Of a stretch of 64,000 nt of DNA, positions 3,965 to 53,800 are shown piece by piece. Source of the DNA: Candidatus Omnitrophota bacterium (GTDB lineage Bacteria; Omnitrophota; Gorgyraeia; JABMRG01; JAFGKX01); the NCBI GenBank assembly GCA_043797125.1, contig JAZDPX010000023.1:67098-131097 (forward strand). The letters are read 5' to 3'. Under the pieces are notes generated by a model. That model was not told the origin of the DNA and did not search any database. It saw only the letters and a program-made list of their open reading frames with translations. Position numbers and translations under genes: made by a program. How positions within the stretch are numbered: position 1 is the first letter of the stretch; each line of letters starts with the position of its first letter.

Positions 3965-3993
3965 TTGACATGCACGATAGCTAGGCATATAAT
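3965..3993 (+). promoter_or_regulatory. sigma70-like promoter: TTGACA, 17 bp spacer, TATAAT, upstream of the RRM protein gene
   Basis: TTGACA 3965-3970, TATAAT 3988-3993. Confidence 0.45.
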
Positions 3994-4029
3994 TATTCTG
4001 TAAATATGAGTGAATAATAGAAATTGATA

Positions 4030-14787: not shown

Positions 14788-14816
14788 TTGACAAAAAAGG
14801 CCCTATTTAATACAAT
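14788..14816 (+). promoter_or_regulatory. sigma70 consensus promoter (TTGACA, 17 bp spacer, TACAAT) for the rnf operon; -10 ends 10 nt before rnfC ATG (near-leaderless)
   Basis: TTGACA 14788-14793, TACAAT 14811-14816; REP-like element copy (GCTCGCTTTCGCGGGCATGACA) lies just upstream at 14749-14774. Confidence 0.5.
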
Positions 14817-14825
14817 GTAAAGATT

Positions 14826-18206: not shown

Positions 18207-18212
18207 ACCGAC

Positions 18213-18821: not shown

Positions 18822-18822
18822 T

Positions 18823-19632
18823 ATGGCTATATTAATACCGACAATAGTATTAGGCGGGCTAGGTCTTATCTTCGGGCTTTGGCTGGCATTTGCGCTTAAG
18901 ATATTTCACGTAGAGACAGACCCGAGGGCTGAGCAGATACTAAAAATCCTGCCCGGGGCAAACTGCGGCGCGTGTGGGTTTGCCGGATGCCAGGGATTTG
19001 CAGAAGCGCTTATAAGAGGTAAGACAGAGCTTAGTTGTTGCGCATTGTGCGGAAATGAAATGCGCGAGCGTTTAGGAACTATTTTAGGCGTTGAGGCAAC
19101 GCAAAAAATAAAGCGATTAGCCACTTTAAAATGCGGCGGCGGCACAAGGTGCGCTGACAAATATGATTATTCAGGCCCTGAGACATGCATGGCTGCAGAG
19201 ATGCTGTTAGGCGGCAATAAGGCATGCCACTATGCGTGCCTTGGTTTCGGCGATTGCAAGCTCGTCTGCCCTTTTAATGCTATTACGATGGGAGAAGACA
19301 GGCTCCCGTCTATAAATCCGGAGAAATGCACTGCCTGCGGCAAATGCGTTACAGCCTGCCCAAAAAAAGTTCTTGTTTTAACGCTTTTTGATAAATTATA
19401 TCATATAAAGTGCAGTTCAAGGGACAAAGGCGCTAAGGTTATGAAGATTTGCAAGGTAGGCTGTATCGCCTGCGGCAAATGCGCAACTACATGCCCTACG
19501 AAAGCCATTGTAATAAAGGATAATTTAGCTGTTATAGATTATGAGAAATGCATAAATTGCGGGGCGTGTTTTAAGGTATGCCCCACGCACGCGATAGAGC
19601 AAGGGAGGCAAAATGAGCGAAGGGATAATTGA
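18823..19632 (+). CDS. rnfB: Rnf complex subunit B (polyferredoxin)
   Basis: N-terminal membrane anchor; GANCGACGFAGCQGFAEAL; multiple CxxCxxCxxxCP ferredoxin motifs. Confidence 0.85.
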   Translation: MAILIPTIVLGGLGLIFGLWLAFALKIFHVETDPRAEQILKILPGANCGACGFAGCQGFAEALIRGKTELSCCALCGNEMRERLGTILGVEATQKIKRLATLKCGGGTRCADKYDYSGPETCMAAEMLLGGNKACHYACLGFGDCKLVCPFNAITMGEDRLPSINPEKCTACGKCVTACPKKVLVLTLFDKLYHIKCSSRDKGAKVMKICKVGCIACGKCATTCPTKAIVIKDNLAVIDYEKCINCGACFKVCPTHAIEQGRQNERRDN

Positions 19633-27037: not shown

Positions 27038-27080
27038 TTATACAGCTTGTGATTAGATGATACTGTTGTGATACGGTTAA
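27038..27080 (+). repeat. three degenerate direct repeats (TGATACAGTT, ATGATACTGTT, GTGATACGGTT) overlapping the putative promoter, 5' leader and RBS of the efflux operon; same family as 11077-11100 and 38134-38157
   Basis: read directly; TTGACA at 27007-27012. Confidence 0.6.
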
Positions 27081-27092
27081 AAAAAGGAGACG

Positions 27093-29632: not shown

Positions 29633-29636
29633 GGGG

Positions 29637-31094
29637 TTGAAAATGAAATTTTTTAATTTTTTTAAGAAAAAGTTTTCAAAGCCAAAAAACGAAATCAGAA
29701 AACCTTTTGGCGAAACGGCGCAGGAGCCTCCAAAGGAAATTGTCAAAAGCCCAGAACCACCAAAAGAAAAACCCTCGCCTCTGAAGGGGAAAATAACCCA
29801 GGTCCTTATGAAGCTGCAGCCAAAGAAAAAGGCGCCGACGCAGCAAAAAGAGCCGGCCAGGCCCCTCCCAAAGAGCCCGAAAAAGTTATTCGCCGCCAAA
29901 TTTAAACCCAGCAAGATGAAGCTTATGCTTCTCTTGGTTGTGTCCGCGATATTTTTAGCAGGGCTTGCCCTTAGAATTATTCCGATATACGTGCCTAAGG
30001 TTATTTCCGGCATCAAAGGAATAAAGGCGAAGGCCCAACAGCAGGAACTTGTAACCGCTCCGGAAGAAGCGGCCGAAGAGGTAGCTTCCGTAAAGGTCTA
30101 CAGGGTGGCGAAGGTGGACTTTATCGACATTTTGCCCGCGATGGGCACGGTAAAAGGCGACAGGGAGGTGGAACTGCGTTTTTCCGCCAACGGCATAATT
30201 GATTCAATTAATTTTTACGAAGGCGATATTATAAAAAAGGGCGATATCATCGCTACGCTGGACCAGAAAGAAGTATTGCTGAAGTTAGAATACGCTAAAA
30301 GCAAGCTAAAAACAGCGGAAGTGGCGGAAATGAGCTCGGAGAAAAAATTAGAGGTGCATAAAAACCTTTTCGAGCAGGGTATTATTATAGAATCAAAGCT
30401 GGATGAGGCCAGGTTAGAATATGAAAGCGATAAAACAAAAGTTGTCTCGGCTCAGAAAGAGGTGGAGTTTTCGCTGTCGGAGCTTGACAAAACGTATTTG
30501 TACGCTCCCATGGACGGAGTGATGGGGACAAGGGACGCGGAAGTCGGCGAGTTTGTCACATCCAATGTTAAAATCGCCAGCATATATGATGTTGATTATA
30601 TTTTGGTGGAATTCGGGGTAATAGAAAAAGACGTAAACAGAATAGCCTTAGGGCAGGAAGTCAAAGCGAATGTGGATACTTATCCCGGGGTTGATTTCGC
30701 CGGCAGCGTCGATAATGTTGCCCCGATAATAGAAGGTAAATCCAGGACGCTTACGGTAAAGGCAAGGCTTAAAAATGATAATCCGAAAGGGACGCTTCTG
30801 CCCGGAATGTTTGCCAGGGTCTGGGTATCCGTCTACGAAAAGAAGGACGTCATAAAGGCCCCGTCCGAATGCCTGTATGATTTGGACAATAACGGGGAAT
30901 TCGATTCTGTGTATGTTGTCGATGAAAACAATATTGCGCATGTAAGGCCTATAAAGATCGGCTATATAACTACGGATTTTGTGGAGATAACAGACGGGCT
31001 TAAAGAGGCAGAGCAGATTGTTTCCGAGGCGATGGCGGAATTGAAGGATGGCTCTAAGGTTGAAATCGTAGAGACGCAGGAAGCGCTGTTTTGA
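29637..31094 (+). CDS. RND efflux periplasmic adaptor (membrane fusion protein) with a Pro/Lys-rich cytoplasmic N-terminal extension
   Basis: N-terminal PKEIVKSPEPPKEKPSP low complexity, one TM, HlyD-like hairpin and beta-barrel, YAPMDGVMGTRDAEVGEFV. Confidence 0.75.
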   Translation: MKMKFFNFFKKKFSKPKNEIRKPFGETAQEPPKEIVKSPEPPKEKPSPLKGKITQVLMKLQPKKKAPTQQKEPARPLPKSPKKLFAAKFKPSKMKLMLLLVVSAIFLAGLALRIIPIYVPKVISGIKGIKAKAQQQELVTAPEEAAEEVASVKVYRVAKVDFIDILPAMGTVKGDREVELRFSANGIIDSINFYEGDIIKKGDIIATLDQKEVLLKLEYAKSKLKTAEVAEMSSEKKLEVHKNLFEQGIIIESKLDEARLEYESDKTKVVSAQKEVEFSLSELDKTYLYAPMDGVMGTRDAEVGEFVTSNVKIASIYDVDYILVEFGVIEKDVNRIALGQEVKANVDTYPGVDFAGSVDNVAPIIEGKSRTLTVKARLKNDNPKGTLLPGMFARVWVSVYEKKDVIKAPSECLYDLDNNGEFDSVYVVDENNIAHVRPIKIGYITTDFVEITDGLKEAEQIVSEAMAELKDGSKVEIVETQEALF

Positions 31095-31462
31095 AAAAGA
31101 ATATACTATTTACCATAGCAGGCCTGATTTTATTTTTAGCCGTCATATTTTTTTTAAAATATCCCCCGCAAACCGATAAAAGTAACCAGTTTAACCCCGC
31201 GGCAAAAACGCTTTGCGAATCAGCGGTTTCGTATATGGAAAAGGGTGATTTTACAATTGCGATCGAGAATTTAAAAAAGGCAATAAAAATAGACCCTAGG
31301 TATCCTAAGCCGGAATACGCCCTGGCGGTTTGTTACCTCCGCATGGAGCCGCCGGATTTAAATGCGGCAAAAGAGCATTATGAGAAATCAAAAGGGCTGG
31401 GTTATCATCCGCCGGAATGGTTCGAAAGGCATTTGAGGAAACTGGAAGGAAAAGAAAAGTAA
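31091..31462 (+). CDS. small TPR-like protein with an N-terminal TM or signal
   Basis: SYMEKGDFTIAIENLKKAIKIDPRYPKPEYALAVCYLRM. Confidence 0.45.
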   Translation: MKKNILFTIAGLILFLAVIFFLKYPPQTDKSNQFNPAAKTLCESAVSYMEKGDFTIAIENLKKAIKIDPRYPKPEYALAVCYLRMEPPDLNAAKEHYEKSKGLGYHPPEWFERHLRKLEGKEK

Positions 31463-31471
31463 AACAAAACA

Positions 31472-34400
31472 ATGGCGCTGCCTGATTTTGCGGTAAAAAG
31501 GCCGGTTACCACGGCCATGATTTTTTTATTTACGCTGCTTTTAGGGGTTATATCCTTAAGCCGGCTGCCTCAGGAATTGTACCCTCCGATAACATATCCT
31601 CAATTAACAATAGTCACATTTTATAAAGATGCCGCGCCCGAAGAGATGGAGATACTGATAACGAAGAAGGTCGAGGAGGCGGCCGGCACGGTAAGCGGAG
31701 TGCGCCGCATAAACTCAACATCAAAAGAAGAACTGTCTTTAGTTATAGCCGAATTTTCCTGGGGCACGGATATGGATTTTGCGGGCTTGGGGGTGCGCGA
31801 AAAGATAGACCTGATCAAGGAGTCCCTGCCAAGAGGCTGCGAAGACCCGGTTGTGATGAAATATAACCCGTTTGAGCTCCCCGTCGTAGTTTTGAACATA
31901 ACAGGAGAAGATATCGCCCCGGGAGATCTGCAACACACCGTAAGAAACATTATTAAAAATGAGCTGGAAAAAGCCGACGGCGTTGCGTCGGTCAACATCT
32001 TAGGCGGCGCGACAAGGGAAATTTTGGTTGAAGTAAACCAGGATAAAATGATGTCCAAAGGCCTCGCAATCACGGATATAACAGAGGCCCTGAATAAGGC
32101 CAACTTGAATTACCCGGCAGGGACGGTGGAAGAGCAATTTTACGAATACCTTATAAGGACAATGGGCGAATTTAAAGTGGTTCCGGAAATAAAAGAAGTG
32201 GTTGTCGGCATAGACGACAGGACAAAAAAAGACAGATTCCAGGAATACGGACAGGAAGACCAGAAGGAGAAACAGGAACGCAGCGTCCAGAATAAACGCC
32301 TTATAATGTTAAAAGAAATAGCGGCCATAAAAGACACTTTCAAGGAAAAAACCTCCGTATCCAGGTATAACCAAAAAGACAGCATATCCATCTCAATTCA
32401 AAAGCAGGCAGGCACAAATACCGTCGCGGTCGCCAACAGCATAAAGGGAGTTTTAAAGCAGCTCAAAGAAATGCTGCCTGCCGGCATAAAGATAAATCTT
32501 GTCTATGACCAGTCTAAGTTTATAAAAGGGGCTATAGCCGGGGTAGGGGATGCGGCGTGGCAGGGCGGCATATTGGCCTTTTTGGTATTGTATTTTTTCT
32601 TAAGGAATTTTTGGAGTTCGTTCATAGTAACCCTTAATATCCCCATTTCGATTATGGTTACTTTCGCCCTTATGTATTTCAGCGGCATTACGTTGAATAT
32701 GATATCTTTAGGAGGCCTTGCGTTAGGCGTAGGCATGCTGGTGGATGCCGGCATCGTTGTAATAGAAAATATATATAGGCATACCCAGGAAGGCAAAAGT
32801 TCGAAAGAGGCAAGCATATACGGCACAAACGAAGTCGCAGGGGCGATAGCGGGTTCTATCCTGACCACAATAGCGGTTTTTTTGCCGATGATATTTGTGA
32901 TAGGAATAGCCGGGCAGTTGTTTAAGGAGCTGGCCTTTACCGTAACATTTTCTCTTTTGGCTTCATGGGCAGTGTCTTTGACGCTTATGCCGCTTTTCGC
33001 TTCCCGCCAACGGCGCATACCTGAAGTTGAAAAAACCAAGAATCAGACAGGGGCGTTGGTTAACATCCTTGACAACATACACAAATTAAACGATAAGGCG
33101 CTTCTTATCTTTTTAAACCACAAAGCAATTGCCCTGACAGCCGTATTTTTTATATTTTTAACAGCCTGTGTTTTATTGCCGTTTATAGATAAGGAATTAT
33201 TACCGCGCGTAGACCAAGGGCAATTTATAATAAAGCTTAATATGCCCCCAGGCACGAAACTCGAGACCACAGATTCGGTGGCGAAGAAAATAGAAAATAG
33301 TTTATTTGATTGCACGGAGGTTAAAGAAGTAACGGTGAGCATAGGTTCCAGCAAGGAAAAAAAAGGCGAACAGCTGCTTGAAACTATGGGGCCGCATCAG
33401 GGGCAGATAATAGTTACGTTAAAACCAAAAGCCCGCCTGGGCAGAACCGGAGCGGGGTATCGCACAAAATCCACTTCACAGGTTGTGCAGAGGCTAAAAA
33501 GTTCGCTTAGCGGGCAAAATCTGTCGGGCGCGGACGTTAATTATATATTGCAGGAGAGCATCTTCGGCGGGGCATTTCAGTCGGGTAAGCCGATTGTGAT
33601 AGAGGTTAAGGGGCAGGAAATAGCGAAACTAAAGGAAATTTGTGACGAGATAAAAACAGAATTAAAAAGAATAACCGGCCTTTACGGGATAGAAGACGAC
33701 CTTGTTCCCGCCTCCCCCGAAATCAAAGCGAATGTGAACAAAGAAAAGGCCTCTAACTACAATCTTTCAGTAAGCGATATAGCGTTGACGGCGCAGACCG
33801 CGGTCAAGGGTTATACGGCCACCAAATTTAAACAGGAAGGAAGAGAGATAGATATAACCGTAAGGCTAAGAGAAAAAGACCGCAATAGAATGGAAAAGGT
33901 AAGGCGGCTAAGCCTGCATTCGCCGTTGGGTATGGATGTGCCTTTGGCCGAAGTCGCGTATTTAACAAAGGGCACAGGCCCTACGGAAATAAAAAGGCTG
34001 GATCAGCAAAGAACCGTCTTGATAACCGCCAGCATACTTAACAGAAGTTTTAACGAGGCATCTTCGGATGTTGAATCTGCGCTGAAAAAAATAAAAACCC
34101 ATCGCGGGTATTCGGTAGAATTAACCGGCGAAAAACAGGAAATGCGGGAATCATTCAGCAGCTTAATGTTCGCGCTGATACTTTCGGTTGTTTTGGTTTA
34201 CATGATTATGGCCGCGCAATTCGAATCTCTGTGGCAGCCGGTTATTATAATGTTTACCATACCATTGTCCCTGATAGGCGTCATACTGGTGCTTTTTGTG
34301 ACCCATACCCCCATAAACGCGATGGTTATTCTTGGCGTTATTATATTAGGCGGCGTAGTGGTGGATAACGCCATCGTGCTTATAGATTATGTAAATACAC

Positions 34401-35053
34401 TTAGAAAAGAAGGGCTGCCTGTTTATGAAGCCTTGGTTAAAGCAAGCCATACAAGGCTCAGGCCGATTCTTATGACTTCGCTTACGACAATTTTCGGCCT
34501 GATACCTCTTGGCCTCGGAATAGGCGAGGGCGCGGAGCTGCAGCGGCCCATGGCCATAACGATTATGGGAGGCCTTACAGTGGCCACCTTTTTCTCTTTA
34601 GTCGTAATTCCCACTTTATACCTGAGCTTTGAGGGCATCGGAGCAAGGTTTAGAAGGCCGCAGCCAGTTGTAGAAGCGGCGGAAGAAAAGCCTTCCGAAC
34701 CCATGCCCATGGAAATAAAACCTCCGCAGAAATTTGAAATACTTCTGCCTCCGAAAGAAGAGCCAAAAAAGCTAATAGAACTTCCTCCACCGGCAAAAGA
34801 AACACCGACGCCCGCTACCGCAGAAAGAGGCGGCATTCCAGTTGAAATATGGAATTCCTTAACAACAAGGCAGCAGGAGTTGGTAGAATATTTAAGGAAG
34901 AACCTTAAGGTTACAAGAAAACAATATTCTGATATCTTCAATATTTCCATACCCACCGCAGCCAGAGACCTGAAATTCCTTACGGACAGCAATATCCTGG
35001 AATTTAAGGGCCCGGCAGGGCCTGGCAGATATTATATGCTTAAAGGACTTTGA
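31472..35053 (+). CDS. RND (AcrB/HAE1-type) efflux permease with an ~180-aa C-terminal tail ending in a DeoR-like winged-helix motif
   Basis: 12-TM AcrB architecture (MALPDFAVKRPVTTAMIF..., DNAIVVIENIYRH); tail ...TRQQELVEYLRKNLKVTRKQYSDIFNISIPTAARDLKFLTDSNILEFKG. Confidence 0.85.
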   Translation: MALPDFAVKRPVTTAMIFLFTLLLGVISLSRLPQELYPPITYPQLTIVTFYKDAAPEEMEILITKKVEEAAGTVSGVRRINSTSKEELSLVIAEFSWGTDMDFAGLGVREKIDLIKESLPRGCEDPVVMKYNPFELPVVVLNITGEDIAPGDLQHTVRNIIKNELEKADGVASVNILGGATREILVEVNQDKMMSKGLAITDITEALNKANLNYPAGTVEEQFYEYLIRTMGEFKVVPEIKEVVVGIDDRTKKDRFQEYGQEDQKEKQERSVQNKRLIMLKEIAAIKDTFKEKTSVSRYNQKDSISISIQKQAGTNTVAVANSIKGVLKQLKEMLPAGIKINLVYDQSKFIKGAIAGVGDAAWQGGILAFLVLYFFLRNFWSSFIVTLNIPISIMVTFALMYFSGITLNMISLGGLALGVGMLVDAGIVVIENIYRHTQEGKSSKEASIYGTNEVAGAIAGSILTTIAVFLPMIFVIGIAGQLFKELAFTVTFSLLASWAVSLTLMPLFASRQRRIPEVEKTKNQTGALVNILDNIHKLNDKALLIFLNHKAIALTAVFFIFLTACVLLPFIDKELLPRVDQGQFIIKLNMPPGTKLETTDSVAKKIENSLFDCTEVKEVTVSIGSSKEKKGEQLLETMGPHQGQIIVTLKPKARLGRTGAGYRTKSTSQVVQRLKSSLSGQNLSGADVNYILQESIFGGAFQSGKPIVIEVKGQEIAKLKEICDEIKTELKRITGLYGIEDDLVPASPEIKANVNKEKASNYNLSVSDIALTAQTAVKGYTATKFKQEGREIDITVRLREKDRNRMEKVRRLSLHSPLGMDVPLAEVAYLTKGTGPTEIKRLDQQRTVLITASILNRSFNEASSDVESALKKIKTHRGYSVELTGEKQEMRESFSSLMFALILSVVLVYMIMAAQFESLWQPVIIMFTIPLSLIGVILVLFVTHTPINAMVILGVIILGGVVVDNAIVLIDYVNTLRKEGLPVYEALVKASHTRLRPILMTSLTTIFGLIPLGLGIGEGAELQRPMAITIMGGLTVATFFSLVVIPTLYLSFEGIGARFRRPQPVVEAAEEKPSEPMPMEIKPPQKFEILLPPKEEPKKLIELPPPAKETPTPATAERGGIPVEIWNSLTTRQQELVEYLRKNLKVTRKQYSDIFNISIPTAARDLKFLTDSNILEFKGPAGPGRYYMLKGL

Positions 35054-38000
35054 CCATGGGCCTTCCGCAAGTTTCCGTCAACCGGCCTGTAACCATATTA
35101 ATGATATTCTCGGCAGTTATTATGGTCGGGACTATCGGCCTTCTGCATTTGCCTATCGAACTTCTACCGAATTTTAGTTTCGGCGACATATCTATTTTTA
35201 TAAATATACGCGGCGGAATACCGCCGGAAGAAGTAGAAGCCCAGGTAAGCGTGCCCATAGAAGATGCCGTAGGCAGCGTAAGCCACCTGCGAGACTTGGT
35301 CTCCATATCGGAAGAGGGACAGTCAAGAGTTGTAATGCGATTTGAGCCGGGCATAAACATGGATTACGCCGCCTTAGAGGTGAGAGAAAAATTCGGCAGG
35401 ATAAGAAGCAAGCTCCCAAAACAGATAGAAAAGCCCGTCATAGCCAAATTTGAGCAGCAGGATTACCCTATCCTGATAACCGCTGTTACCGGCGGAATAA
35501 ACTACACGCCGGAGGCGCTAAGAAAGATAGTTGACGAGACCATAAAAGAACAGATATTACGGGTTGAGGGCGTCGCCAATGTTGACGTAGGGGGAGGCAG
35601 AGAGCGCAAAATTTTAGTGGAGGTTGACCAGACGAAACTTCAGGCCTACAGGCTGCCCATAGGCAAAGTAATAAATGCCTTAAATTTGAATAACCTCGAT
35701 TTGCTTTTAGGGGAACTTGAAAGAAAGAGGGATAAATACCTTATACGCGTCCTGGGCGGCTTCAGGAATATCGATGATATAAAGTCTGTCGGCGTGGCGA
35801 CTACGCCGAGCGGCTCTATCATTAAAGTCAGCGACGTAGCAGAGGTCAAAGATTCGTATCTTGAGGCAACCAGTTATGCGAGGGTCAATGTGTTGCCCGT
35901 AGTATCTTTATATATTCAAAAAGAATCGCAGGCAAACACAGTCGAGGTGATAAGAAAGATACAAAAAGTAAAGGAAGCCCTGACATTCGGCGTGCTTGAT
36001 AAAAGAATTAGGTTGATAGATACTTACAACCAGGCCAACTCAATAATCCAGGCTATTGACGGCGTAAAGACGAGCTTGATATATGGGGCATTTTTGGCCA
36101 TTCTGGTGCTGTGGTTATTTTTGAGGGATGCCCGCTCTACCTTTATTATCGCTACGGCCATTCCCATTTCGGTTATCGGCACTTTTATCCTTATGTTTTT
36201 TCAGAAGATAACATTGAATGTTATGACATTAAGCGGCCTGGCTATCGGCGTGGGCATGCTTGTCGATAATGCCATTGTGGTATTGGAGAATATATCGACG
36301 CTGAAGGAAAAAGCCGTAGAGAGGGTAAAGGCATCGATAGACGGCTGCCAAGAGATGACCCTGGCCATTGTAGCCTCTACCCTGACTACAGTCGTTGTGT
36401 TTTTGCCGATCGTCTTTGTAAATAAAGAGATACGCATTCTATACAGCGGCCTGGCATTTACAGTAGCCTATTCTTTATTAGCCTCTTTGATCGTCGCGCT
36501 TACCCTTGTGCCTATGTTATCGGCGCGGCTGCCCGCCTTGCGTTTGATCAGGCGCAAGAGTCCGCCGCGGGCAAAAAGGCGGTTACGCGCTAAAACCTTC
36601 CTGACATTTTTCAAAAGGGCGTATCGTAAAATGCTGGCAGGCGCGTTAAGGTGGCGTTATATACTGCTCGCGGTTGCATTTTGTATTTTTGCCGTAGCGG
36701 TTTTTTTAATAGTATTTAAGATTGACAAGGAATTTGTGGGCACAACCGAACAGCAGGATTTTACCATATTTATAGAATTGCCGACGGGAGCAAAATTAGA
36801 CATTTCCGACAAGGCGGTAAAGGGCGTTGAGGAGATATTGCAGACGATCCCAGAGATTAAGCAGTTTTCATCCAGGGTCGAAAAATGGTCGTCCAAGGTT
36901 TATTGTAAATTGGTCCCAATGGGGCAACGTTCGCGTTCCACAAAAGACATTATAGACGATTTAAGGACCAGGATAGAGGACGTGGAAAGAAAATACAGAG
37001 AGGCATTCATATATTTTGAAGAGCCGCAGGAAGTCGAGACAAACGAGATTATTGTCGAGATATTCGGTTATGATTACAAGGTCCTGAATGAGCTCGCGAT
37101 AGAGATGCTTACCAAGATGCAGTCCGTGGACGGCCTGGTTGATTTGAAAATTAGATGGAGAAAAGGTCGCCCCGAATGGTGGATTATGGTAAACAGGCAG
37201 AAGGCGGCGCTGTATGGTTTTTCCGTCGACGAAATTGCCAATACCGTCCACGCCCAGATGAGGGGCCTAAGGGCTACGTTATATCATACCGAAGGCAAGG
37301 AAGTTGAAGTTATCGCGAGACTGCAGGAGAAAGACCGCCGCACGCTGGATGCCTTGCGTAAGCTTACCATGATAAGGCAGGACGGGACGGCGGTTTATCT
37401 TGATCAGATGGTGGATTTCTCGCCGGATATGGGCCCGAGCAAAATATGGAGAAAAAATAAATCCAGGATGATTCAGATAAGCGCAAACAGGGGAAGGCTC
37501 GCGTTCGGAACAGCGGCGCAAAAGATTAAAAAGGCGCTGGCTGATATGAAAATGCCGAAGGATTATTATTATAGCTTCGGGGAGAATTACTGGAGAATGA
37601 TACAGAATCAAAAGGAACTTATGTTTGCCCTCAGCCTCACTATTGTATTGATCTATCTGGTGCTGGCTTCCTTATTCGAGTCATACGCGCAGCCGTTTAT
37701 CATAATGATAACAGTTCCGTTAGCGGCTATCGGTGTCTCGGCAGCTTTGCTTATCACTAAAAAGACAATAAACGTCGGTATGCTAATGGGCGCAATTATG
37801 CTCGGGGGAATAGTGGTGAATAATGCAATTATACTTGTCGATTATATTAACCGGTTAAGAGAAAAAAAGATAGCGTTTTTAAAGTGTATTTTGAAGGCCT
37901 CGCAGGACAGGCTAAGGCCTATTATGATGACCACCGGCACAACTGTTTTAGGGCTTCTTCCTATGGCAATGGATAAAAGCGAACAAGCCAACCTTTGGTC

Positions 38001-38136
38001 ACCGCTGGCTATAACTGTTATGGGCGGACTTATTAGCTCAACAGCATTAACCTTATTTATAGTTCCTGGTATGTACCTAATTTTCGGTGATATCGGCAGA
38101 TATATCTCGTTTAATACAAAGAAGTTATGGAAATGA
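35050..38136 (+). CDS. second RND (AcrB-type) efflux permease, overlaps upstream gene by 4 nt
   Basis: MGLPQVSVNRPVTILMIF..., two large periplasmic loops, 12 TM. Confidence 0.85.
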   Translation: MTMGLPQVSVNRPVTILMIFSAVIMVGTIGLLHLPIELLPNFSFGDISIFINIRGGIPPEEVEAQVSVPIEDAVGSVSHLRDLVSISEEGQSRVVMRFEPGINMDYAALEVREKFGRIRSKLPKQIEKPVIAKFEQQDYPILITAVTGGINYTPEALRKIVDETIKEQILRVEGVANVDVGGGRERKILVEVDQTKLQAYRLPIGKVINALNLNNLDLLLGELERKRDKYLIRVLGGFRNIDDIKSVGVATTPSGSIIKVSDVAEVKDSYLEATSYARVNVLPVVSLYIQKESQANTVEVIRKIQKVKEALTFGVLDKRIRLIDTYNQANSIIQAIDGVKTSLIYGAFLAILVLWLFLRDARSTFIIATAIPISVIGTFILMFFQKITLNVMTLSGLAIGVGMLVDNAIVVLENISTLKEKAVERVKASIDGCQEMTLAIVASTLTTVVVFLPIVFVNKEIRILYSGLAFTVAYSLLASLIVALTLVPMLSARLPALRLIRRKSPPRAKRRLRAKTFLTFFKRAYRKMLAGALRWRYILLAVAFCIFAVAVFLIVFKIDKEFVGTTEQQDFTIFIELPTGAKLDISDKAVKGVEEILQTIPEIKQFSSRVEKWSSKVYCKLVPMGQRSRSTKDIIDDLRTRIEDVERKYREAFIYFEEPQEVETNEIIVEIFGYDYKVLNELAIEMLTKMQSVDGLVDLKIRWRKGRPEWWIMVNRQKAALYGFSVDEIANTVHAQMRGLRATLYHTEGKEVEVIARLQEKDRRTLDALRKLTMIRQDGTAVYLDQMVDFSPDMGPSKIWRKNKSRMIQISANRGRLAFGTAAQKIKKALADMKMPKDYYYSFGENYWRMIQNQKELMFALSLTIVLIYLVLASLFESYAQPFIIMITVPLAAIGVSAALLITKKTINVGMLMGAIMLGGIVVNNAIILVDYINRLREKKIAFLKCILKASQDRLRPIMMTTGTTVLGLLPMAMDKSEQANLWSPLAITVMGGLISSTALTLFIVPGMYLIFGDIGRYISFNTKKLWK

Positions 38137-38818: not shown

Positions 38819-41800
38819 ATGATAAAACAGGCTACGGGAAGATATAGTTTTATTTTAAAAGCTATAAGTCTTACTATAGCCTTTTGTTTTACTATACAGC
38901 AGATCTGCTGGGGCGCAGACGGAACGCATCTTTGGAGTTTGATAAAAGGCAACCAGGTATTAAATGCTCAAGCAAGCGATTTCGTTAAGCTTCGCGATAT
39001 TTCCATCCCCGAAGATTACGGCATTGTCAGAGAAATTTTTGATGCCGGCAACAACCGCGTAATAATCCACATACAAGACGCGCACTCGAATTTAGGCGCG
39101 CAGGAATCTATAAGCAGGCTCCTTGACGCTTTAGAAAAAAGCTACAACCTCAGACTGGTTTCTCTTGAAGGCGCCTACGGTTTCGTGGATACCTCTACGC
39201 TTTCATGCCATCCGGATAACAGCACAAGAAAAGACCTTGCCAGGTATTTCCTGAATCGCGGCAAAATTAACGCCGCGGAATACTATAAAATAACATCAAA
39301 ATCCAGAGTGAAATTATACGGCGCAGAAACCCCCCAACTTTACAGGGATAATATCGCCGCTTATGTGGAATCGCTTGCCAATAAAGGCGAAATTCACAAA
39401 GCAATTATTACGCTAAAAAAGACATCTCAGGATTTGAAAGAAAAGGCCTACACAAAAAGCTTATTGGAACTGGATGCGAAAAGCATAGCCTATAAAACCG
39501 AAGGCATATCCTTTAAAGAATACTGGCAATATTTGGGCAACATAGCCCGTTCTTTATCGATAGATATATCCGGATATGAAAACGTGTCCCTGCTTCTTAA
39601 GGCATCCGCCTTGGAGGAAAAGACTGATTTTAAAAAAGCCGAACAGCAGCGAAAGGAGCTTATAGATATAATTTCGGATAAGCTCCCAAAGGATGACATA
39701 AAAGGACTGCTTGAAGAAAGCGTGTCTTTCGGATTGAATAAAATCCCGGCCTCCACCTTTCATAAGCACCTATTCGATTTAGCCGCAAAGGCCGGAACAG
39801 ACCCGGCAAAGTATCCGGACATCAGCAATTACGGCCAATATATCAATATGCACGAGTCCATATCCCAGGACAGGCTTTTTGAGGAAATTGATGAATTGGC
39901 GCTGCAGATAGAGGAAAAGTTATTCCAGAACGACGAGCAAAGACAGCTCGCAAAAGTGGCAAGAAACGCTGATATATTAGTAGACCTTCTGGACGCAAAG
40001 ATAATAAATAAAGACCTCGCGTATTATAAAACCCACCGCGATGAATTTATTCCCCAGGCGATAGCGCATAAGCTTACCAAGCTGATGGTAAAGCATAATA
40101 TAACCGCGAATCTGGTGCCTGATATGAGGGTTGTGGCAAAGGCCCTTCCGGTAGTAGAAAGATTTTACGATGTCGCCGAAAAAAGAAACAAGGCCCTGGT
40201 TGAAAACACCCTTGCCAAGATGGAAAAAGATAAGCGCCAGTTGTCGGTTTTAATAACAGGCGGTTTTCATACGGAAGGAATAAAGGAATTGCTGAAAGAC
40301 AAAGGCGTCTCTTACGTAGTCGTGCTTCCAAAATTCTCCCATAACGCGTTAGAGAGGCCGTATGAGGATGTCATCTTAAATAAGAAAGAGCCGTTTGAGG
40401 AAATACTTTCAAATAACGAATACTACCTCGCCCCCGCAAGCATATTCTCTAATTTTCAAAACAATCTTGAAATTCTTGTTGCCATGGCTACGTTAGGCAT
40501 GTACCTGGGCGTAACCTGGATAAAAGAAAATAAAGACCCAACCGAGCAAATACCCGCCTTGCTGAATATTTTAGGGTTAGAAAGACAGAGCATAATAAGA
40601 GAGGGCGAAACCCCCGGGCCAGTTGAATTAAGCCAGATAAAGAATGCTTTTAGTTTCGACTTTGTATTTGAAAATGAAAACGATAAAGGAACTTCTATTT
40701 TGGCGCATTTTCACAATAATTTTTTCAGGATAACAAGGTATAAAAACCCGGAACAGCAAGAAAGGCCTTTCGATATACTGCTTCTGGAAGGCGATGAAAA
40801 AATATCTGCCGCGGCATCGTTTAAGAAGCCCGCGTTAGCAGCTAAACAGCCCAGCGAAGAGGCCCAGCAGATAGTTGACAGCCTTGTTTTAGCGCAAAGG
40901 AGCATTACTAAAGAGGCCGATGAAAAACTTCAGGCGCAGTTTAAAATTAAAATATTGGAGCTTTTGGATGCAATAGAAACACCGGACGATTTTGAGGGCG
41001 CTACATTTAAAATCAAGCTGGGTAAACTTGTAAGGAATTATGATTTTAACGAAACTCTTAAACAGCAGATAGTTGATGATTTTATAAAAAGGAAAAAAGA
41101 TGAACTGAAGCCTGGACTTACTCAATCCTTTAAGAGAAAAGAAGCAGAGAGAAAAAAGGCGGAGCAAATAGAAGAGAAAATAGTAAAAAGCATAAGAATC
41201 AAGACAGAGGAGCTTAGTAAAACCGATCAGGCTGCGCTTGCGGATATCGTAGCGATTCATAATTCGCTTTACGATTTAAAAAAGAGCCTGCTTGAGGTAA
41301 GGCAAGAGCTAAAGGCTTTGCGAACCGACTGTTTTGATGCAGGCGCAATAATTGACTGGAACGAATGGGAGTACGACCCTGATAATCCCGACCGGATCTA
41401 CCAGATAAAAGCCCCAGAATCATACACAGCTACAAGAAACCCTGAAGACGGAAAATTTTATGTTAATACCGACGCGGGCGGCAGAGGATACGGGCCTGCA
41501 ACACCCAGCCCTGATGAGCTTGAGGAAGCCGAAGCAGTAAAAGCTATTCAAGAAAAACTGAATGAACTGTTTGAGCAAGCGAAAGAAGCGCATAAGAAAA
41601 CTTTAGAGATATTCAAAGAAAAGGCACCGCATGCGACTTTGCTGGGCAAGATTTTAAACGAAAGGAAGAGTGACACAACTAAGGCCTTCTATGCATACAA
41701 GCAACAGCTGTCAGGCCTGCAAAGCAAATCCAAAAACAAGGACAGGTTTGACAGTATAATAAACGGCCCTGTTAAAAAGATAGATGAATATTTTTCGGAA

Positions 41801-44800
41801 ATTGATAACGAGATAGAACTTCTCGTTGAGCTTTTTACAGACACAATAAAGCAGCCGACAGAAGGCTTAAACTCTGCGCTGGCGTCAATAGAAACGCAAG
41901 AATTGCCGGATATCATAAAGTTGATAAACAAGGCAATCGATGAGTACGAGTCAATACAAAAGGCTTATGAGAAGGCAGTGCTTGAATTAGGAATCTGGCG
42001 GCAGTTTGAAGAAAACAACCCGGATAAACAGGTTGCAGAAAAAATTGAGAAAATGCTATTAAGCATTAAAAACGTCAACACCGTGTATAAAAACGCGACA
42101 GGCGAAATGTATAAAAGCGACAAAATAACTGATCGTATAAAAAGCGCCTACGAAAATGCGCAGAAATTGTTTGAAGCCGAAGCGGACGAGGCTAAAGAAG
42201 CGCTAAAGACAGAGCAAATCCGTAAGACCCTAAAGCCGAAAGACCCTACCATAAAAGGGCTAGCTGAATTGTTAACGCTATATTCAAAAAAACACAACAA
42301 ACAACTTTTTTCGTATTCATACGCAGACATGGAAACAATTGTGGAATTAGCAAAACTGGTTAATCTGCCGGTTGATTGTACGCACGTATTCGATGTTATA
42401 GATAAAAAGCGCAAGGAACATAGGCAAAAAGTAGATGCTGAATTCCAGAATTTGGTGAATGAAGCAATAGGAAATACGGTTGCCGAAGCAGAACAGATAG
42501 CTACTGAGGCAAAAAAGGAAGTTATTGCTGGGTTTGAGCCAGAAAAGGTTACAGCATTTATTGACATGCTTGCCGAGAAACAAAAAGCAATAATGGAATC
42601 CGGCATGGTCCCAGGGTATGAAAATTTTATAGCAAATTCGGAAGTGTGGTTTGCCTTTGATGGCAAAACCGGCGAAGAGTCACGAGACATTACAGCAGAA
42701 AAATTTCATGATTTAATGGATAAGGCAATGGGTCTTAGTCTGAGCATAGATCAGCATATAGCAAGTCAGATAATAGATAATGCCGAAAATCTACTACAGG
42801 AACAGGAAATAAACCCGGATGTAGCCAAAAGTAAAATAACGGAGATTTTTGACATAGCTGAACGACACTTTGAAGCTAAAAAAAAGGAATACTGGTTTGA
42901 CGGCGCTCTACAAGAGCTATCAGAAGAACAAGGTATTTTATTTAACTCTATAACTACAGAGTTAGTGCAAAAAAAGAAGGAATGCCTTGATAAAATTGAG
43001 AAATTAGAAAAAACCCAAGAAACAATTGAAGGAGAAGAGACGCCTCTGACATCTGTTGATCTGGAGAAAGAGATAAATGAAATCCTTGAAAAGGAAGAAG
43101 AGAAGCCCCCTGTTATCGAGGAGGACGTATTCGAACTCATTGAAAAAATAGAAGAGAAAGAAGACGAGACACAAAAGGAAGAAGAAAAACTGGAAAGAGA
43201 AACCGAGCTTAAGGATTTGATTAAGCAGGAAAAAGAAAGGCAAACAAAAGCAGAAGACGAACAGAAGCCAAAAATCGAAGAAACAACAACGGAACAATTA
43301 GCGAAAGAAGTTGAAAAATTAGTAAGCGGGCTTTCCGATGGCGAACTTAAGGCCATAGAAGAGCTCAGGGTAATGTTGTATGAAAACGAAGACAACGCTG
43401 AAAACGCAAAGTTTCTTGAGCTTTACAATAAGGCAAAGCAGGCTTTTGAAAAGGCCATGGAGGCGGCATTAGGCAAAGACTACGAAGAAGGTTTGAGGCC
43501 ATGGCAAGAGGCAGGGGCAAAAGCGCTTTTATCAGGCAGGCTGCTTAAGCTCAAGGCGGGTAAAGGTAAGACATTGTCAGCGGAACTGGCGTTTTATATT
43601 ATGGCGCTCGGCATAATAGAAAGGCATAAAAGAAAAGACTTAAAAACCCAAAAAGACGCCATTATATTCACCGCGCATAACGAGAAAATGGCCAGGGATA
43701 ATGCGAAAGAAGCGGCAAAGGTGCTGGGCTGTTTACACGAGGAAATTAAAATAGTGCGCCTCAAGCCTAACCCAGAAGGCGGGGAGCCGCTGGCGTATAT
43801 CTACGATAAACATGGCGACGCTACGTCAATAACGCTTAAAAGCGCCTTTGAACAAGGCACTATTTTTGTCGGCACGCCTGATGTGTTTATCCACCGCGCC
43901 GGTACAGAGAGAAGAACGGCGGACAGCGACGAAATTTATTTTTTGAAGAGAGAATATAATTTGGTATGTGATGAAGTTGACCTGCCCGCCATGTATAACC
44001 TGGCGATGCCTCATAATATAGCGATGCCGGTTGACCAGGGAAGCGACCATTATAAATACGGTGTAGCCTTTGCCGAGAAGGCAATGGAAATAGCGTTAGC
44101 AATGCAGGGCTTACCCGGCCAATATTATGAGATCCCTGAGGGTTCTAAAACCGTTATATTGACAGAAGGAACGTTTGGCAAAAACGGAGTGAAATTTACG
44201 CGGGAGTTTATTAAGGAAGATACCGAAATACAAAATATCGATTATCTTAGAAACTTAAGCATTGACGAATGGGTAGAACAGGTTGAGGCATCGCTGGCCG
44301 CGTTAAAGTGTTTTCGTATAGATGATGATTACAGAATAGAAAACGGCGAAATTGTTATCATATGTAAAGTAACAGGCGCTTCCCTGCGCGGCAGCAGGTG
44401 GAATTACGGTATTCATACCGCCGTAGAAGTAAAAGAGGTTGTGATAAATCAACAAAAGATTGAAATACATCCTCCTGCTTCAGAAACAGCTGTGTCTATG
44501 GCATTTAATACATTCTTGCGCGTAAACAATATAAAAGGCAGGCCCCTTATAAAAAGAGACAGTACAGCAGAATCAACAAAAGGAAAATTCACAGGCATGA
44601 GCGCTACTATTGACGAGGTGTTTTTCATTAAAATTCATGGTTTAAAAACAGCGGATATGGGAGATATTGTAGATAAATGGGAAAAGAAAAATGGCTATCC
44701 GGAACTTGATATAGAGCCAACCGAGCTATATATGACAAACAACGAAAAATGGGCTGCTATACTGGCAAAGGTAAAACAGATTCATACTGATGAAGAAAGC

Positions 44801-47800
44801 AAGGAATATAGAAGGCCTATATATATGCATGTTGAGGATAAGGATATAGATTATGCGAAAGAAGTGATAACCAAATTAGGGCTTATTGACGCAGAGATAA
44901 AAGTGATAAAGGCAGCTTACAGCGAAGAAGAAATAAAAGATATGAGAAAAGAGTTAGGCTTGCAAAAAAGATCTGACATAAGCAACGATGAAATTGAGGA
45001 AAAGGCTATTGATAAATACCTAGAGAAAGCCGGTTTCCTTGGCAGAATAACGCTTGTTACGCATTTAGGTGGTCGCGGCGTTAATCCCAAACTGCCGAAA
45101 GAAGGCAGCCTAGAAAGAGATTTTGTAATCAAAGCAGGCGGCCTTCTGACAATCTCTACTTCTGTTGATGAACTTGAAGATACGGAAATACAGTTCCAGA
45201 ACAGGGCCGCGAGAAACCAGGAACCCGGCGGTTACAAAGCATACTGGTCTATGCAGGATACTCTTATAAGCGTAGAAGCCAAAAAGGCACTTTCTGAGTC
45301 ATATCCTAAACTGGAGAATATTTTAAGCAGGGATAAACCAGATAAAAAGCTGATTAAGAAAATAGTCGGGCGTATACGTGAGGTTATAAAAGAAAAAAGG
45401 ATATATAGCGCGACTGAGCAGGAACAGATGCAGGAGGAGCTTGATAAATATAACGATGAATTTTTAAGAGGGTTTGCCCTTCTGCGGAATAAACAAGGAT
45501 TCTATGATGACGTAGTAATGCAAGCTGCGGATAACAAAGCTTACATTGAAAAGGCAGCAAGTGAAATAGCTGAAATTATAACGCAAAAAGACGAAAAGGA
45601 TAAAAAGGCGGAACTGGCAACGCAGATTAAACGCAGGATTATGAATGTAAGCGAGGCTGCGCAATTGAATATGGGCGAGCAGGAGCGTAATCGCCTTGAT
45701 TCAGCCTGTAATTTTATGGCTGATAAATTGTTATCAGAAGCAAATAAGGCGTCCCTAACAGGCGCGATTACCCGCTATATCGAAGAATACATAAGAGAGC
45801 AATTTATACATATAACGGAAGAAGGCTCAGTCAGCTTCTTAAGCAGGGCTGAAAAATTAAAATTCCAGTTAGACAGATTTATTACAAGGTATGGCGAATT
45901 AAACCAGCAAGCCTTGCCTTTTGACAAGGTTAGCGCGTATAAGGTGCTGATTAAGCAATTTGCGTATGAAGAAAAACTCAAGATGGACAAGGAAAAGGCC
46001 GCCATATTATATTCATTCACGGAAAAAGGCGCCGAAGAATATAAAAAGGCGATTGAGAAAAAGGCCGCGTTAGACGCTCAAATGAACCGGCATATAGACG
46101 GGGTATTTAAGGATATTCAGGAATTGACGTCAGAGTTAGCAAGCATCGCGGCAGAACTCATCGAAATTTATGTAGAAATGGAAAAATTCATCGAAGAGAC
46201 AGCGAGTGAGATAGCTGAAATTGTAACGCTGGCAGAAGACGCCGCGAAAGAGCTGGCAACGCAGATTAAGCGCAGGATTATGAACGTAGACGAAGACACA
46301 GAGAACAATATGGACAAGGAAAAACGCGACAAGCTCAATTTATACTGCCTTGCTACAGCAGTTAACTTGTTGCTTGAGATGACAATAAGCGAAGCGCCGT
46401 TAAAAGATGTAATCGCCGGCTGGATTGCGCAATACATAAAAAAGATATCCAAGCAGATGGAAGGAAAAGAGATTAAAGAAGAAGAGATTGAAGAAAAAGA
46501 AGAAGTCCCTCCCGAAGAAGAAGTTGAAGAAGCGCCCGAAGAGTTGCCTGTTCCTGAAGAAATAACAGAAATAGAGGCTCCTGTTTCGGGCCTGAAGTAT
46601 TTTTGGACAAGGCTTCTGCCCTTAGCGTCAATTTTTGGAATTGGATGGCTATTATACAGGTGGCTGTTTAATTTTATAGGGCTAAACACAATAATTAAAA
46701 TGGCCGCGCAAGGAGATGTTGGCGGTATAGGAAGCATTATACCAAATATTTTATCAGGCAATACAGGCATTCCTATGTGGGTTTTGATTGCGGTAATAGG
46801 AATTTCACTTGCCATATACTTTATTACCAAGCCCCTTATGGAAAAATTTAACAGCATAAAAGCGGAAGCTCCGGTAAGAGAATATTTTGGTGGCGTGCTC
46901 AAGTTTTCTCCGGCAGCTTTACCAACAGTTTTTTTATTTGTTACGACAATCTTATCCATCGGTTTATTTTTTCCGAGCATTATAATTGTAGTGCTTGCGA
47001 CAATAAAAGGCGTGTCTGTAGCGGGGGTTTTAGCAGGAGCGCTTAACGCAGTCGCAATATTAAGCGTTTTGGCTGCGGCCTCACAATTAATAATGGTAAG
47101 GATGTATTACAGCGCCAATAAGGAGACACCACAGCAGCAAATAGGCAAGCCAAAAAGATTCTTCAGGGCTTTTACAGCCTCTGTTATGGCTTCCGCAACC
47201 ATATTTTTGCCTTTTGTCATCTTAACTTATGCAAATCCAATTGCGTATGTTCTCAGCGTATTTTTGGCAGTAGTGTGGTATATAGCTGTTCTTGCGCACA
47301 GGGCAATAAGGGCAGGATTATATAAAGGCTTATCGCAGTTTATGCGCGATGTAATAGGAGGGGAAAGGTTTATTCAGCCTGAAGCGCATATGAAATGGTC
47401 TTATACCGGGGTGATAACAGGCGTCGCATTTTATACGCTGCTTTTAAGAGTTTCGCTTGCAGCCTGGGCAATGCCTGCGGCGATATTTTTATTAGGCATT
47501 TTTACCATTAACCTGATTTTTTATTTAAAGGCGCAATATACACAGTCAAAACTAATGTCTAAATTTGTAGACGCAGACACGAAATTCAAATTTATTATTC
47601 AGGATGCAATAATCTACTGCAGGAAACTCGTGCCGTCCGCGGCAGCTGCCGGCTCTGCGGCAGGTTTTCTGTGGGATACGTTGACCAAGGACATGACTCC
47701 CATATCTTCCACAACCCTCTTAGTGATAGGCGCTGTTTTGGTAGGCGTGCTTTTAATATCCATCGCGGCAAAATCGCGTATTCATACCCGGCTTTCCTAT

Positions 47801-50800: not shown

Positions 50801-53800
50801 TTAGATTCGGTCGCAACACCTCCCGCGGGCGTCGCCACCTTAATGGTTTATTATATGTCAGGCGTATTTTCGCTTTTTGAAAGATTAGGGATTGATTATG
50901 AAAAAGGCCCGGCGGAAACAGGTTTTTGGTTTTCCGCACAAGAGATGCTGGAAGACATAAAGAGCTACTTTTTTACATATAAGAAAATAAAAGAATGGGG
51001 GACAAAGCGGGGTAATATTTCGCACTTCAAAGAAGAGATTAGTTCTTATGAAGCCTTGAGAAAGCCCCTACAAGAAGAATATGCGGAATTCTCGGAAGCA
51101 GAGAAGAGGTTAGGCGAGATAGCCGCTTTGATGGAAGAACATAAAGACGCAACCGGCCTGCCGGAATATAAGGAAATCGAGGATGAGATAAACAGGGCCT
51201 TGGCAGACTATAGGCAAGAAGACGAATCCAAAAAAGACGCGTTTGCTTTATACCGCGATGTTAGAAATAAAAGGGCCAGGGCAGAGGCTGAGCTTGAGGC
51301 TGTAAACCTTAAGCTTGAAGTTTTGAAGATGCAGGAAGAAAGCCTGCGCGCAAACGATACTTCGCCTGAGTATCCGGTGCTTATCCAGCAAATAAAGATA
51401 AAAGAGGCAGAATCAGAGATAGCCAAGAAAAAACGCGATTTGGGCATCGCGGTATTGCTTCTGGAATTTGAAGACATAAAAAAGGCCAAAGGCATCTTTT
51501 CGGATGAGGCGAAAAAGAAAGAGATTGAAATCGCGGACGCGGAAAGAGAAATAGATATCTTAAACAGCGAAAAGGCGCAGCGGGAGCGGGAGCTTGAAAT
51601 AGCAAGATACGATGCGCAGATGGAAACCGGAAGACAGGCAATTCCGTTATCAGCCGGATATGTAGGAAGCGAAGTGCTGGGGATAGTGGAACTTATTAAA
51701 AAGTACGAGCCCCTGAAGAACCATCCGGCGCTTACGGACGCGAGGCTGACAACGCGTTTTGCGATATTTACGGATGAGCTTAAGGATGTAGTTAAAATAC
51801 TGCAAAAAGACTTGGGCCTTGCGGAAACCGGCATATTTGACGAGAAGACGAGAATAGCGCTTATTGACGCATTAATAAAGCAACTGGAGAAGCAAAACAA
51901 TGACGAAGCTGACTGGATTAAGTTTTTAGAGACAGAAGAATACAGGCAGTTAAACAGAGAAAAGGTGCATAAAAAGCACCTGGTGGCGGATGGCGTAACA
52001 AAGGCTGTGCCCGGCCTTGAGAAAGCAAAAATTATTTCGCAAGAAGATCTCGCGGAGGCCCTTAATGCGGACAGCGTAGAAATAAGGCAATTGTTTGAAG
52101 AAATCCTTAAAAAGGCGCAAGATAAACAGAATCGTGAAATAGCGCGGCAGATAAAGGATATTATATCGCGAATCATAGATCTGGAAATCATGCAGAAAAA
52201 AATAGAAAAGGCCGGCACCGAATACAACCAGAAAGAATATGAAAAAGAAGAAAGAGACCTGCGCATACTCATACTCACCGCAGAGATAGACAAATTAAAT
52301 GCCGAAAAGGCGTTATTGGAGAATTCCGCAAACAAGCCGGCTTTGGTGGATAAAAATAACGCGGAAGCCGCCGTTAGCGCATTGGAAATCTTGTCGAAAT
52401 CCCCGACAAAGGCGCAGACAAGGTTCCTTACGGGTATTAAAAAACAGATAAAAGAGTTAGAGAGAGAACAGTGTTATGCCGCCTTCTGCAAGATGCTTTT
52501 GGGGTATGACGAAAAGAAGGACTCAGCGGGCGCCGGCTGCATCAGATGGTTTATGCAGCATATAACCGATTTAAAGCTGGAAGACAACGAAATTATGAAA
52601 GAGGCGTTTATTCAATTTTTAACCGAGCCAGGCAATATCATGTTGCCTTTCGCGCCTTTAAGGCAGGTTTTGATGGAAAAGGAATTAAGCGGGTTTTTAA
52701 ACAACGAAAAATTGCGCACGCAAAAGGCGAGGGAATTTTATTCGATAGAGTTGCAGGTTCAGGCAAGGGTAAAGGTTTTAACATTAAAAGACAAGGTTGA
52801 TGAAAGCGCTAAAGAATATGCGGATAAAGCCATCGAATTATTTAAAAAAGACGCAAAATACATAACCGACATAGATAAAATTACCCTGCTTAGATTTGCC
52901 GCCATACACCATAAAAACATAGCTGATTACGCCCTGGCTTATTATTCCGAACTTCATCAAAAATGGCTTGTCAGAAACCAGGTTCAAGAAGCGGGCCCGT
53001 CGGTTAGCAGCGAAGCTGCCAAGGTATTAAAAGAGGCGACTGAAAAAGGTTTTGAGATAGCAGAAAGAGAAATTAAATTTATTCTTGAATCAGAAAAACT
53101 AACAGCAAAAGAAAAAGAATTAGAAGAAAAGATAAAAAACAACAGCGTTGAAAATGCGGATTATCTTGAGTATTGGAGCCTTAAACTTCAATACTTAATT
53201 GAATGGCGCAACATAGTAAAACAAAAGTTTGAAAACCCGGTTTACTTGGATTGGGCATTGCCTATAATGGAAAAGCACCCCCATGTATACACTGACGCAG
53301 ACAAGCAAAATTACGCTCAGCTAAAAGATATATCTAAAGACGAAAAGGCCAAAGATGACTTTAATAGAGACATAATGCAGCATCAGGAGGCATTCGCGTG
53401 GGTAAATAAACGCATTGAGATCGATAAAAAAGAACAGGCCATAGCGGCTATTAAAGACAAAGATTCGATAGAGTTCGCGCTGGCGGATGCCGGCCTTGCG
53501 GTAAAACAGGCAGAGTTAAAAATAACGGAACTTTCTCCTTTGTTTATTCTTTGGCTTACCGGGGTAATAACGCTAAAAGATAAGGACGGTATTATACAAG
53601 ACCCTATCCTGGGCGAAGCCCAAAAGAGGTTATTGAGTTATATCAAAATGACAGGCACTAATACCGATACTCTTATACGCCTGGCGCGCGAACTTGCAGA
53701 AGGAACACAAAATTCCGAATATTTAAAATATGCCGTTGGCACAGAGGCTATCGCGGCCGAAAGCTGGCTGAAGTTTATTGAGGCCAAAAAGGCGGGCGTT

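Follow-up and report, generated by a model that had tools for sequence, protein, structure and literature searches.

How tiny-celled bacteria make, insert and export proteins of 10,000–150,000 residues is an open question, and SecA-like domains embedded in such giants are so far the sole mechanistic clue to their export. The 64,000-nucleotide stretch of Candidatus Omnitrophota contig JAZDPX010000023.1 analyzed here (the window) contains a giant open reading frame (ORF) in which a SecA-like ATPase is followed by a compact block of hydrophobic helices. An earlier note on this DNA proposed that motor and block might form a fused, self-contained translocation unit, with the block as a SecY-like channel. 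What, then, is the block? We favor, at a probability of roughly one half, an anchor or dock: a lineage-specific polytopic domain that would keep the cis SecA-like motor at the inner membrane and determine the topology of the chain downstream.

The giant ORF runs on the + strand from nt 38819 to the window end at nt 64000. Its frame is open from nt 38795 and still open at the last base, giving 8,402 codons from nt 38795 and at least 8,394 residues from the first ATG (38819), which is preceded by a GGGGG-rich stretch. Residues are counted throughout from nt 38795, the first codon past the upstream stop; ATG-based numbers are lower by 8. By size and origin the ORF belongs to the class of giant genome-encoded Omnitrophota ORFs of West-Roberts et al. 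(bioRxiv 10.1101/2023.11.21.568195). Six proteins encoded upstream of it are exact NCBI entries within MFH0732151-182, from a Candidatus Omnitrophota bacterium metagenome-assembled genome.

Kyte-Doolittle and Hessa-type scans placed the hydrophobic block at residues 2606–2992 (nt 46610–47770, + strand). Eight helices were robust and a further one or two marginal, for a realistic range of 8–10, labeled A to J below. The earlier note had counted nine to ten, a fair figure, and had named far fewer helices as the outcome that would speak against its motor-plus-channel idea. Its limits for the block (46596–47775) bracket these helices almost exactly, one base out of frame. Nine non-overlapping 19-residue windows with a mean hydropathy of at least 1.6 fell inside a 400-residue span, against a maximum of five, and usually one to three, in 1000 shuffles of the residues of the giant. 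The clustering is far above chance, and the giant is indeed polytopic and integral to the membrane, as had been supposed.

Relatives of the block proved scarce. Word-indexed search of 5.8 billion proteins gave no match to the block alone or to a two-sequence profile of it, and with the SecA-like region and block together as query it retrieved ordinary SecA proteins only (884–1125 residues). Exhaustive phmmer comparison with 1.84 billion representative proteins yielded one match, a 72-residue metagenome fragment (55% identity, E 3e-10). Scans of genome contigs in GTDB, JGI metagenomes and viral contigs found no relative of the block; a motif-pattern scan of the JGI metagenomes gave five matches, all chance by tblastn, and tblastn of the block against plasmids gave none. 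The giant protein itself was never retrieved from the protein databases, where very long proteins seem to be absent.

The fragment sits on contig BART01007099.1 (GCA_001682575.1; 1,455 bp). Nucleotides 3–584 of the + strand of this contig encode a homolog of about residues 2725–2914 of the window protein (47% identity), and nt 1454–564 of the − strand encode a homolog of residues 2274–2678, comprising a helical domain, an acidic linker and helices A and B. The two strands carry adjacent pieces of one homologous gene that meet at nt 561–584, which evidently reflects a fold-back or a chimera in the assembly of the contig and not a real gene order. Judged from the alignments of both pieces, the unit of helical domain, acidic linker and helices A–H is conserved in this one relative at 37–48% identity. 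Conservation is highest (55–59% identity) in the cytoplasmic loop between F and G and in three helices, E, G and H, and lowest in helices C and D and the D–E loop (32–38%). That the F–G loop and these three helices lead in conservation suggests a cytoplasmic interaction surface. No significant helical periodicity of the conserved positions was detected with the single relative.

All helices of the block are encoded on the + strand. Helix A (residues 2606–2626, nt 46610–46672) is of marginal hydrophobicity and carries a conserved arginine, Arg2622, retained in the relative (YRWLF versus FRWIF), with a second arginine at the cytoplasmic end of the helix A window. Helix B (2657–2678, nt 46763–46828) is strong and is matched by a hydrophobic segment at the equivalent position in the relative. 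Helix C (2708–2737, nt 46916–47005) is strong and long; as a single span it fits the charge rule, and it forms one helix in a low-confidence model, so a split at ~2720 into two short helices is less likely. Helix D (2742–2766, nt 47018–47092) is strong and rich in alanine and glycine. Helices E and F (2792–2813 and 2815–2834, nt 47168–47296), both strong, form a hairpin with a one-residue turn and hold the conserved motifs MASA[TS]IFLPFV, Y-x-N-P and WY..LAHRAI; identity to the relative is 59% in helix E and 45% in helix F. The cytoplasmic F–G loop (2835–2867, nt 47297–47395) contains six lysine or arginine residues, is 55% identical to that of the relative and bears the motif FI.PEA.M, just past which a YTG motif opens helix G. 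Helices G and H (2868–2884 and 2886–2908, nt 47396–47518), the first fairly good and the second strong, form a further hairpin with motifs AFY and AMPA. Segment I (2945–2960, nt 47627–47674) is rich in alanine, glycine and serine, weakly hydrophobic, and at ~+8 kcal/mol on a simple scale too polar for insertion alone. Helix J (2970–2992, nt 47702–47770) is the most hydrophobic of all and is followed by KSRIHTRLSYK.

Helices B–J contain no aspartate, glutamate, lysine or arginine, and asparagine, glutamine and histidine number only four across all nine. The helices of the block are rich in alanine, glycine and serine, with proline in A, B, C, E, F and H; proline is kept in the relative in all four of the proline-bearing helices covered by the alignment (C, E, F and H). 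With helices B–J uncharged, this composition and conserved prolines, the block has the look of a packed anchor bundle and not of a polar conduit.

The block is entered from the cytoplasm, because SecA-type ATPases need cytosolic ATP. Its best-scoring charge topologies likewise begin in the cytoplasm, and the layout of the N-terminus (an anchor at residues 19–37, ~520 residues, then a helix at 558–576) is consistent with this entry side. Four hairpins follow (A/B, C/D, E/F and G/H), with outer turns of 1–4 residues apart from a 30-residue A–B loop; cytoplasmic loops are 25–61 residues long and rich in lysine and arginine. Lysine plus arginine counts are 1, 1, 0 and 1 in the presumed outer loops A–B, C–D, E–F and G–H, and 5, 6, 6 and 8 in the presumed inner loops B–C, D–E, F–G and H–J. 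Two models differ at the end of the block. With nine helices the C-terminus lies outside, with 26 lysines and arginines in and 7 out, and an 11-residue flank bearing four positive charges would be translocated. With ten helices, segment I spanning, the C-terminus is cytoplasmic and the charge bias is the best obtained (29 in, 4 out). Whether segment I spans decides the side of the following 5,400 residues; amino-acid composition did not distinguish the sequence preceding the block from that following it.

Is the motor real? The SecA-like region covers residues ~1550–2318 (nt 43442–45748, + strand) and was assigned from profile and PDB matches to nucleotide-binding domain 1 (NBD1), the preprotein cross-linking domain (PPXD) and NBD2. 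It is matched by SecA_PP_bind of Pfam (E 2e-11), by PDB SecA chains (E 4e-16) and by NCBIfam SecA models (E 2e-20), and a custom-built SecA hidden Markov model (HMM) matched residues 1571–1887 and 2099–2318. When the region is aligned with 11 ordinary SecA proteins, the Walker A (GKGKTL), DEVD and GRG motifs are invariant. AlphaFold2 modeling of the region with the 11 SecA sequences gave a poor mean predicted local distance difference test score (pLDDT 48.3), and the top Foldseek matches were all SecA (E 2e-21). Taken on its profile, motif and fold matches, the upstream domain is a genuine but divergent SecA-type ATPase, in agreement with the earlier note.

Its divergence has two aspects. First, both arginines of the 'ESRRID' motif of SecA NBD2, nearly invariant across the 11 ordinary proteins, are replaced (DELEDTE, residues ~2120–2130, window ~45090–45130), and given this change ATP turnover may be altered. 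Second, similarity is solid for NBD1, PPXD and NBD2 up to residue ~2220 and weak (accuracy 0.58) from there to ~2318; scaffold, wing and two-helix finger are not convincingly present in the region, the HMM alignment being weak past NBD2. One NCBIfam SecA model aligns to profile position 725 of 814, from which a partial scaffold may be present.

Between the end of SecA-like similarity and helix A lie ~290–385 residues, fewer than the ~430 first estimated. Parts recognized around this stretch, all on the + strand, are a helical cytoplasmic domain (residues 2274–2412, nt 45614–46030; 41% identity to the relative over 144 residues), a shorter diverged copy of it (~2468–2550, nt 46196–46444), and an acidic linker rich in glutamate and proline (2560–2600, nt 46472–46594), read from the sequence and also found in the relative. 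The copy is an internal duplication. Its core, ELATQIKRRIMNV, occurs at nt 45623 and nt 46262 and is identical at 36 of 39 nucleotides, and the relative holds a single copy of the unit. The duplicated unit, ASEIAEI..ELATQIKRRIMNV, can be followed at residues ~2255–2290 and ~2468–2503 (window 45560–45670 and 46196–46310).

We next consider whether the block could be a protein-conducting channel acting in cis with the SecA-like motor, either an extremely diverged SecY or an unrelated fold, so that the giant would bring along a translocon and export its downstream chain through it. Motor and polytopic domain do share one polypeptide, ~300–385 residues apart. With segment I counted, the block has ten helices and an N-in/C-in arrangement as in SecY, together with the best charge bias; its first periplasmic loop, at ~30 residues, has the length generally known for the plug-bearing loop of SecY; and the stretch it conserves best, a cytoplasmic loop, might serve as a docking site for the motor. 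The SecY-type count would, however, need the weak segment I, which is too polar to insert by itself, and the basic, conserved F–G loop has no sequence resemblance to SecY loops, of which C4 and C5 bind SecA.

Family searches speak against the SecY version. The Pfam SecY model, PF00344, normally picks up SecY and Sec61 proteins from every domain of life. With the block as query, hmmscan against Pfam-A and NCBIfam at E ≤ 10 returned no SecY model and no other family, and phmmer against all PDB chains at E ≤ 10 returned no SecY or Sec61, only a chance match to PsaL (E 0.2); HMMER filters drop many matches above E ~0.1, which bounds the meaning of these thresholds. PHROGs gave no match at E ≤ 1. 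Neither did an unrelated transporter or lipid-handling family appear, the other finding that the earlier note had said would count against its proposal. No internal repeat was detectable among the hairpins (all pairwise z-scores <1.1); the two inverted five-helix halves of SecY are also dissimilar in sequence, so an absent sequence repeat says little. The short outer turns, the uncharged helices with few polar residues and a motor lacking a recognizable two-helix finger argue against a SecY-like conduit, and less so against another channel fold. According to West-Roberts et al. (bioRxiv 10.1101/2023.11.21.568195), canonical SecA and SecYEG occur alongside such giants in Omnitrophota genomes. 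The SecY-like channel put forward earlier gained no support from these sequence comparisons, and we regard a cis channel of either kind as unlikely. The more specific proposal of a new-fold polypeptide conduit or insertion device, by which the giant would be a single-chain, self-exporting translocon independent of SecYEG with its F–G loop docking the motor, appears very unlikely.

The block might instead act on its own in the membrane as an enzyme, transporter or sensor, perhaps one that handles lipids or glycans, and its proximity to the SecA-like domain would then be incidental. Omnitrophota giants combine many unrelated enzyme domains in mosaic fashion, and the conserved proline, Asn-Pro and His-Arg motifs at helix ends resemble those of functional polytopic proteins. 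The same searches of Pfam, NCBIfam, PHROGs and PDB gave no family for such a module, however, and helices B–J offer no obvious intramembrane catalytic or ion-coupling residue, the conserved arginine of helix A being the exception. GT-C-type glycosyltransferases, ligases and polymerases need large outer loops; the periplasmic exposure of the block is almost nil. We consider an independent module doubtful. Two specific candidates were dropped on inference only: a GT-C-type glycosyltransferase or polymerase for the near absence of outer loops, and an ion-coupled transporter for the lack of a charged residue in helices B–J.

A less specific role deserves more weight. The block could be one of many helix clusters that stitch Omnitrophota giants to the membrane, serving retention and topology switching only and having no specific partner. 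Giants of at least 10,000 residues average 22 helices, with ~2% of residues in helices whatever the length, and 80% of Omnitrophota proteins of this size are singletons at 30% identity (10.64898/2026.06.07.730766), so an orphan block is expected; a single relative among 1.84 billion representative proteins fits that pattern. Against this, the helices are not spread along the chain, with nine inside 390 residues and none in the next 5,400, and specific motifs and a cytoplasmic loop are kept at 55–59% identity where neighboring helices stand at 36–38%. We consider such stitching possible but not probable.

In the anchor or dock that we favor, the block would enter the membrane from the cytoplasm, cross it in four tight hairpins and end in the very hydrophobic helix J. 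It would serve as anchor and docking platform for the cis SecA-like ATPase and the adjacent conserved helical domain, presumably holding the motor beside the ordinary SecYEG/YidC machinery of the cell. With nine helices, J would act as an internal export signal for the downstream chain; with ten, segment I spanning, the chain would return to the cytoplasm. This reading draws on the helix clustering, the alternating loop charges, the lack of charge in helices B–J, the unit conserved in the relative and the published suggestion that nearby helices anchor SecA domains in such giants. Also counted for it were a SecA-like domain with no convincing scaffold, wing or finger, and family, structure and repeat searches in which neither a transporter nor a channel nor an enzyme was indicated. 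Lying just past the motor, a compact and conserved membrane module is a natural candidate for the membrane partner of that motor, and if this were true, with the block as a channel or as a specific SecYEG dock, self-export of giant proteins would be explained.

Several points weigh against the anchor or dock. A single helix would suffice as an anchor, and nine helices with conserved prolines and Asn-Pro motifs, together with a conserved cytoplasmic loop, suggest a role beyond passive anchoring. Functional coupling between block and SecA-like domain is inferred from adjacency only. The conservation evidence is one pairwise comparison with a chimeric 1.4-kb contig, and the seeming absence of very long proteins from the databases makes the orphan status of the block partly technical. 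AlphaFold2 of the block without an alignment gave an all-helical, unreliable model (pLDDT 51.6, predicted template modeling score 0.29), with which Foldseek found nothing below E 3.7.

The rest of the giant frames the block sparsely. A signal-anchor or signal peptide lies at residues 19–37 (nt 38849–38905, + strand; hydropathy peak 1.66, with lysine and arginine residues before it). The earlier note had described the block as the only strongly hydrophobic stretch besides this anchor; another good helix is present at residues 558–576 (nt 40466–40522, + strand; Kyte-Doolittle 1.69, simple insertion energy 2.2 kcal/mol). This second helix has no lysine or arginine in the preceding 15 residues and two after, and probably returns the chain to the cytoplasm. 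Together, the anchor and the second helix would put the ~520 residues between them, which precede the SecA-like region, on the non-cytoplasmic side. On that basis, and not on that of the block, it is plausible that large domains lie to either side of the membrane, as claimed earlier. Past the block, the hydropathy scan found no membrane helix in the next 5,400 residues to the window end. Outside the SecA domains, Pfam gave almost no match over all 8,394 residues, and PDB sequence searches of the remainder gave none. One sub-threshold match to PG_binding_1 was seen at residues ~4324–4356 (window ~51765–51865; E 0.004 and 17.6 bits, short of the cut-off at 23), which, if real, would put the region past the membrane block outside the cytoplasm.

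Two antisense ORFs lie within the giant gene on the − strand, at nt 46168–46980 (270 residues) and nt 51208–52335 (375 residues). The first faces the glutamate-rich linker and the first helices of the block; biased codon content most likely accounts for both. A complete RND efflux set (window 27068–38136) immediately precedes the giant gene on its strand. It consists of an unusually long outer-membrane factor (854 residues), a membrane-fusion protein and a tandem pair of AcrB-type pumps, and the C-terminus of the first pump weakly matches a DeoR-type helix-turn-helix (E 2e-4). Other upstream genes on that strand include an Rnf cluster and genes for RACo, phosphoglucomutase, enolase and an ROK protein. 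The Rnf-type cluster (window 14826–19632) encodes RnfC-like and RnfD-like proteins and an Fe-S protein (18823–19632); an antisense ORF at 14807–16045 (412 residues) overlapping the rnfC-like gene is probably spurious. G+C content is 34–35% in window 1–4000, where two GDSL-type hydrolase genes lie, against 40–46% elsewhere in the window.

Among known systems, SecY/Sec61 with SecA shares with this locus a SecA-type ATPase paired with a polytopic domain entered from the cytoplasm, of perhaps ten helices, with long, basic and conserved cytoplasmic loops. It differs in that the block has no sequence or profile similarity to SecY/Sec61, no detectable two-fold repeat, turns of 1–4 residues and very hydrophobic helices, uncharged from B to J, and in that motor and membrane domain are here covalently linked, the motor having no recognizable two-helix finger. 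FtsK/SpoIIIE and EccC/EssC are membrane-tethered motors whose polytopic N-terminal domain is mainly an anchor, with 2–4 helices ahead of the motor. They too hold a translocation-type ATPase at the membrane by helices of the same chain, whereas their motors are RecA-like, hexameric and FtsK-type; here the motor is SecA-type and the 8–10-helix anchor comes after it.

The nearest likeness is to other Omnitrophota giants. West-Roberts et al. described giants in which many transmembrane regions accompany divergent SecA DEAD and preprotein-binding domains without scaffold and wing, suggested that adjacent transmembrane regions may anchor the SecA domain, and left those regions out of their structure predictions (bioRxiv 10.1101/2023.11.21.568195). 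A 2026 preprint counted helices in 916 giants and reported a 20-protein cluster with a SecA DEAD-like domain as its sole Pfam content (bioRxiv 10.64898/2026.06.07.730766), and Seymour et al. found giant ORFs with many helices across the phylum (PMC10066038). The protein studied here shares with the SecA giants its phylum, a length above 8,000 codons, a signal or anchor at the N-terminus, a SecA-like ATPase in which scaffold and wing are not convincingly present, adjacent transmembrane helices, almost no other domain and extreme sequence uniqueness. The domain sets of the 'Archaeovorin' and 'Dockerin' types (glycosyl transferases, hydrolases, methyltransferases and NUDIX; dockerin and TSP3) were not found in the 8,394 residues available of a gene that runs on past the window. 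Where it departs from these giants is in having one compact 8–10-helix block after the SecA-like domain, followed by at least 5,400 helix-free residues; none of the three studies characterised a compact polytopic block in that position. A new mechanism is not established by this difference. What the block adds to the described phenomenon is a defined module, with coordinates, motifs and two candidate topologies: it is conserved in at least one relative and is a sequence-unique addition to an already described kind of protein.

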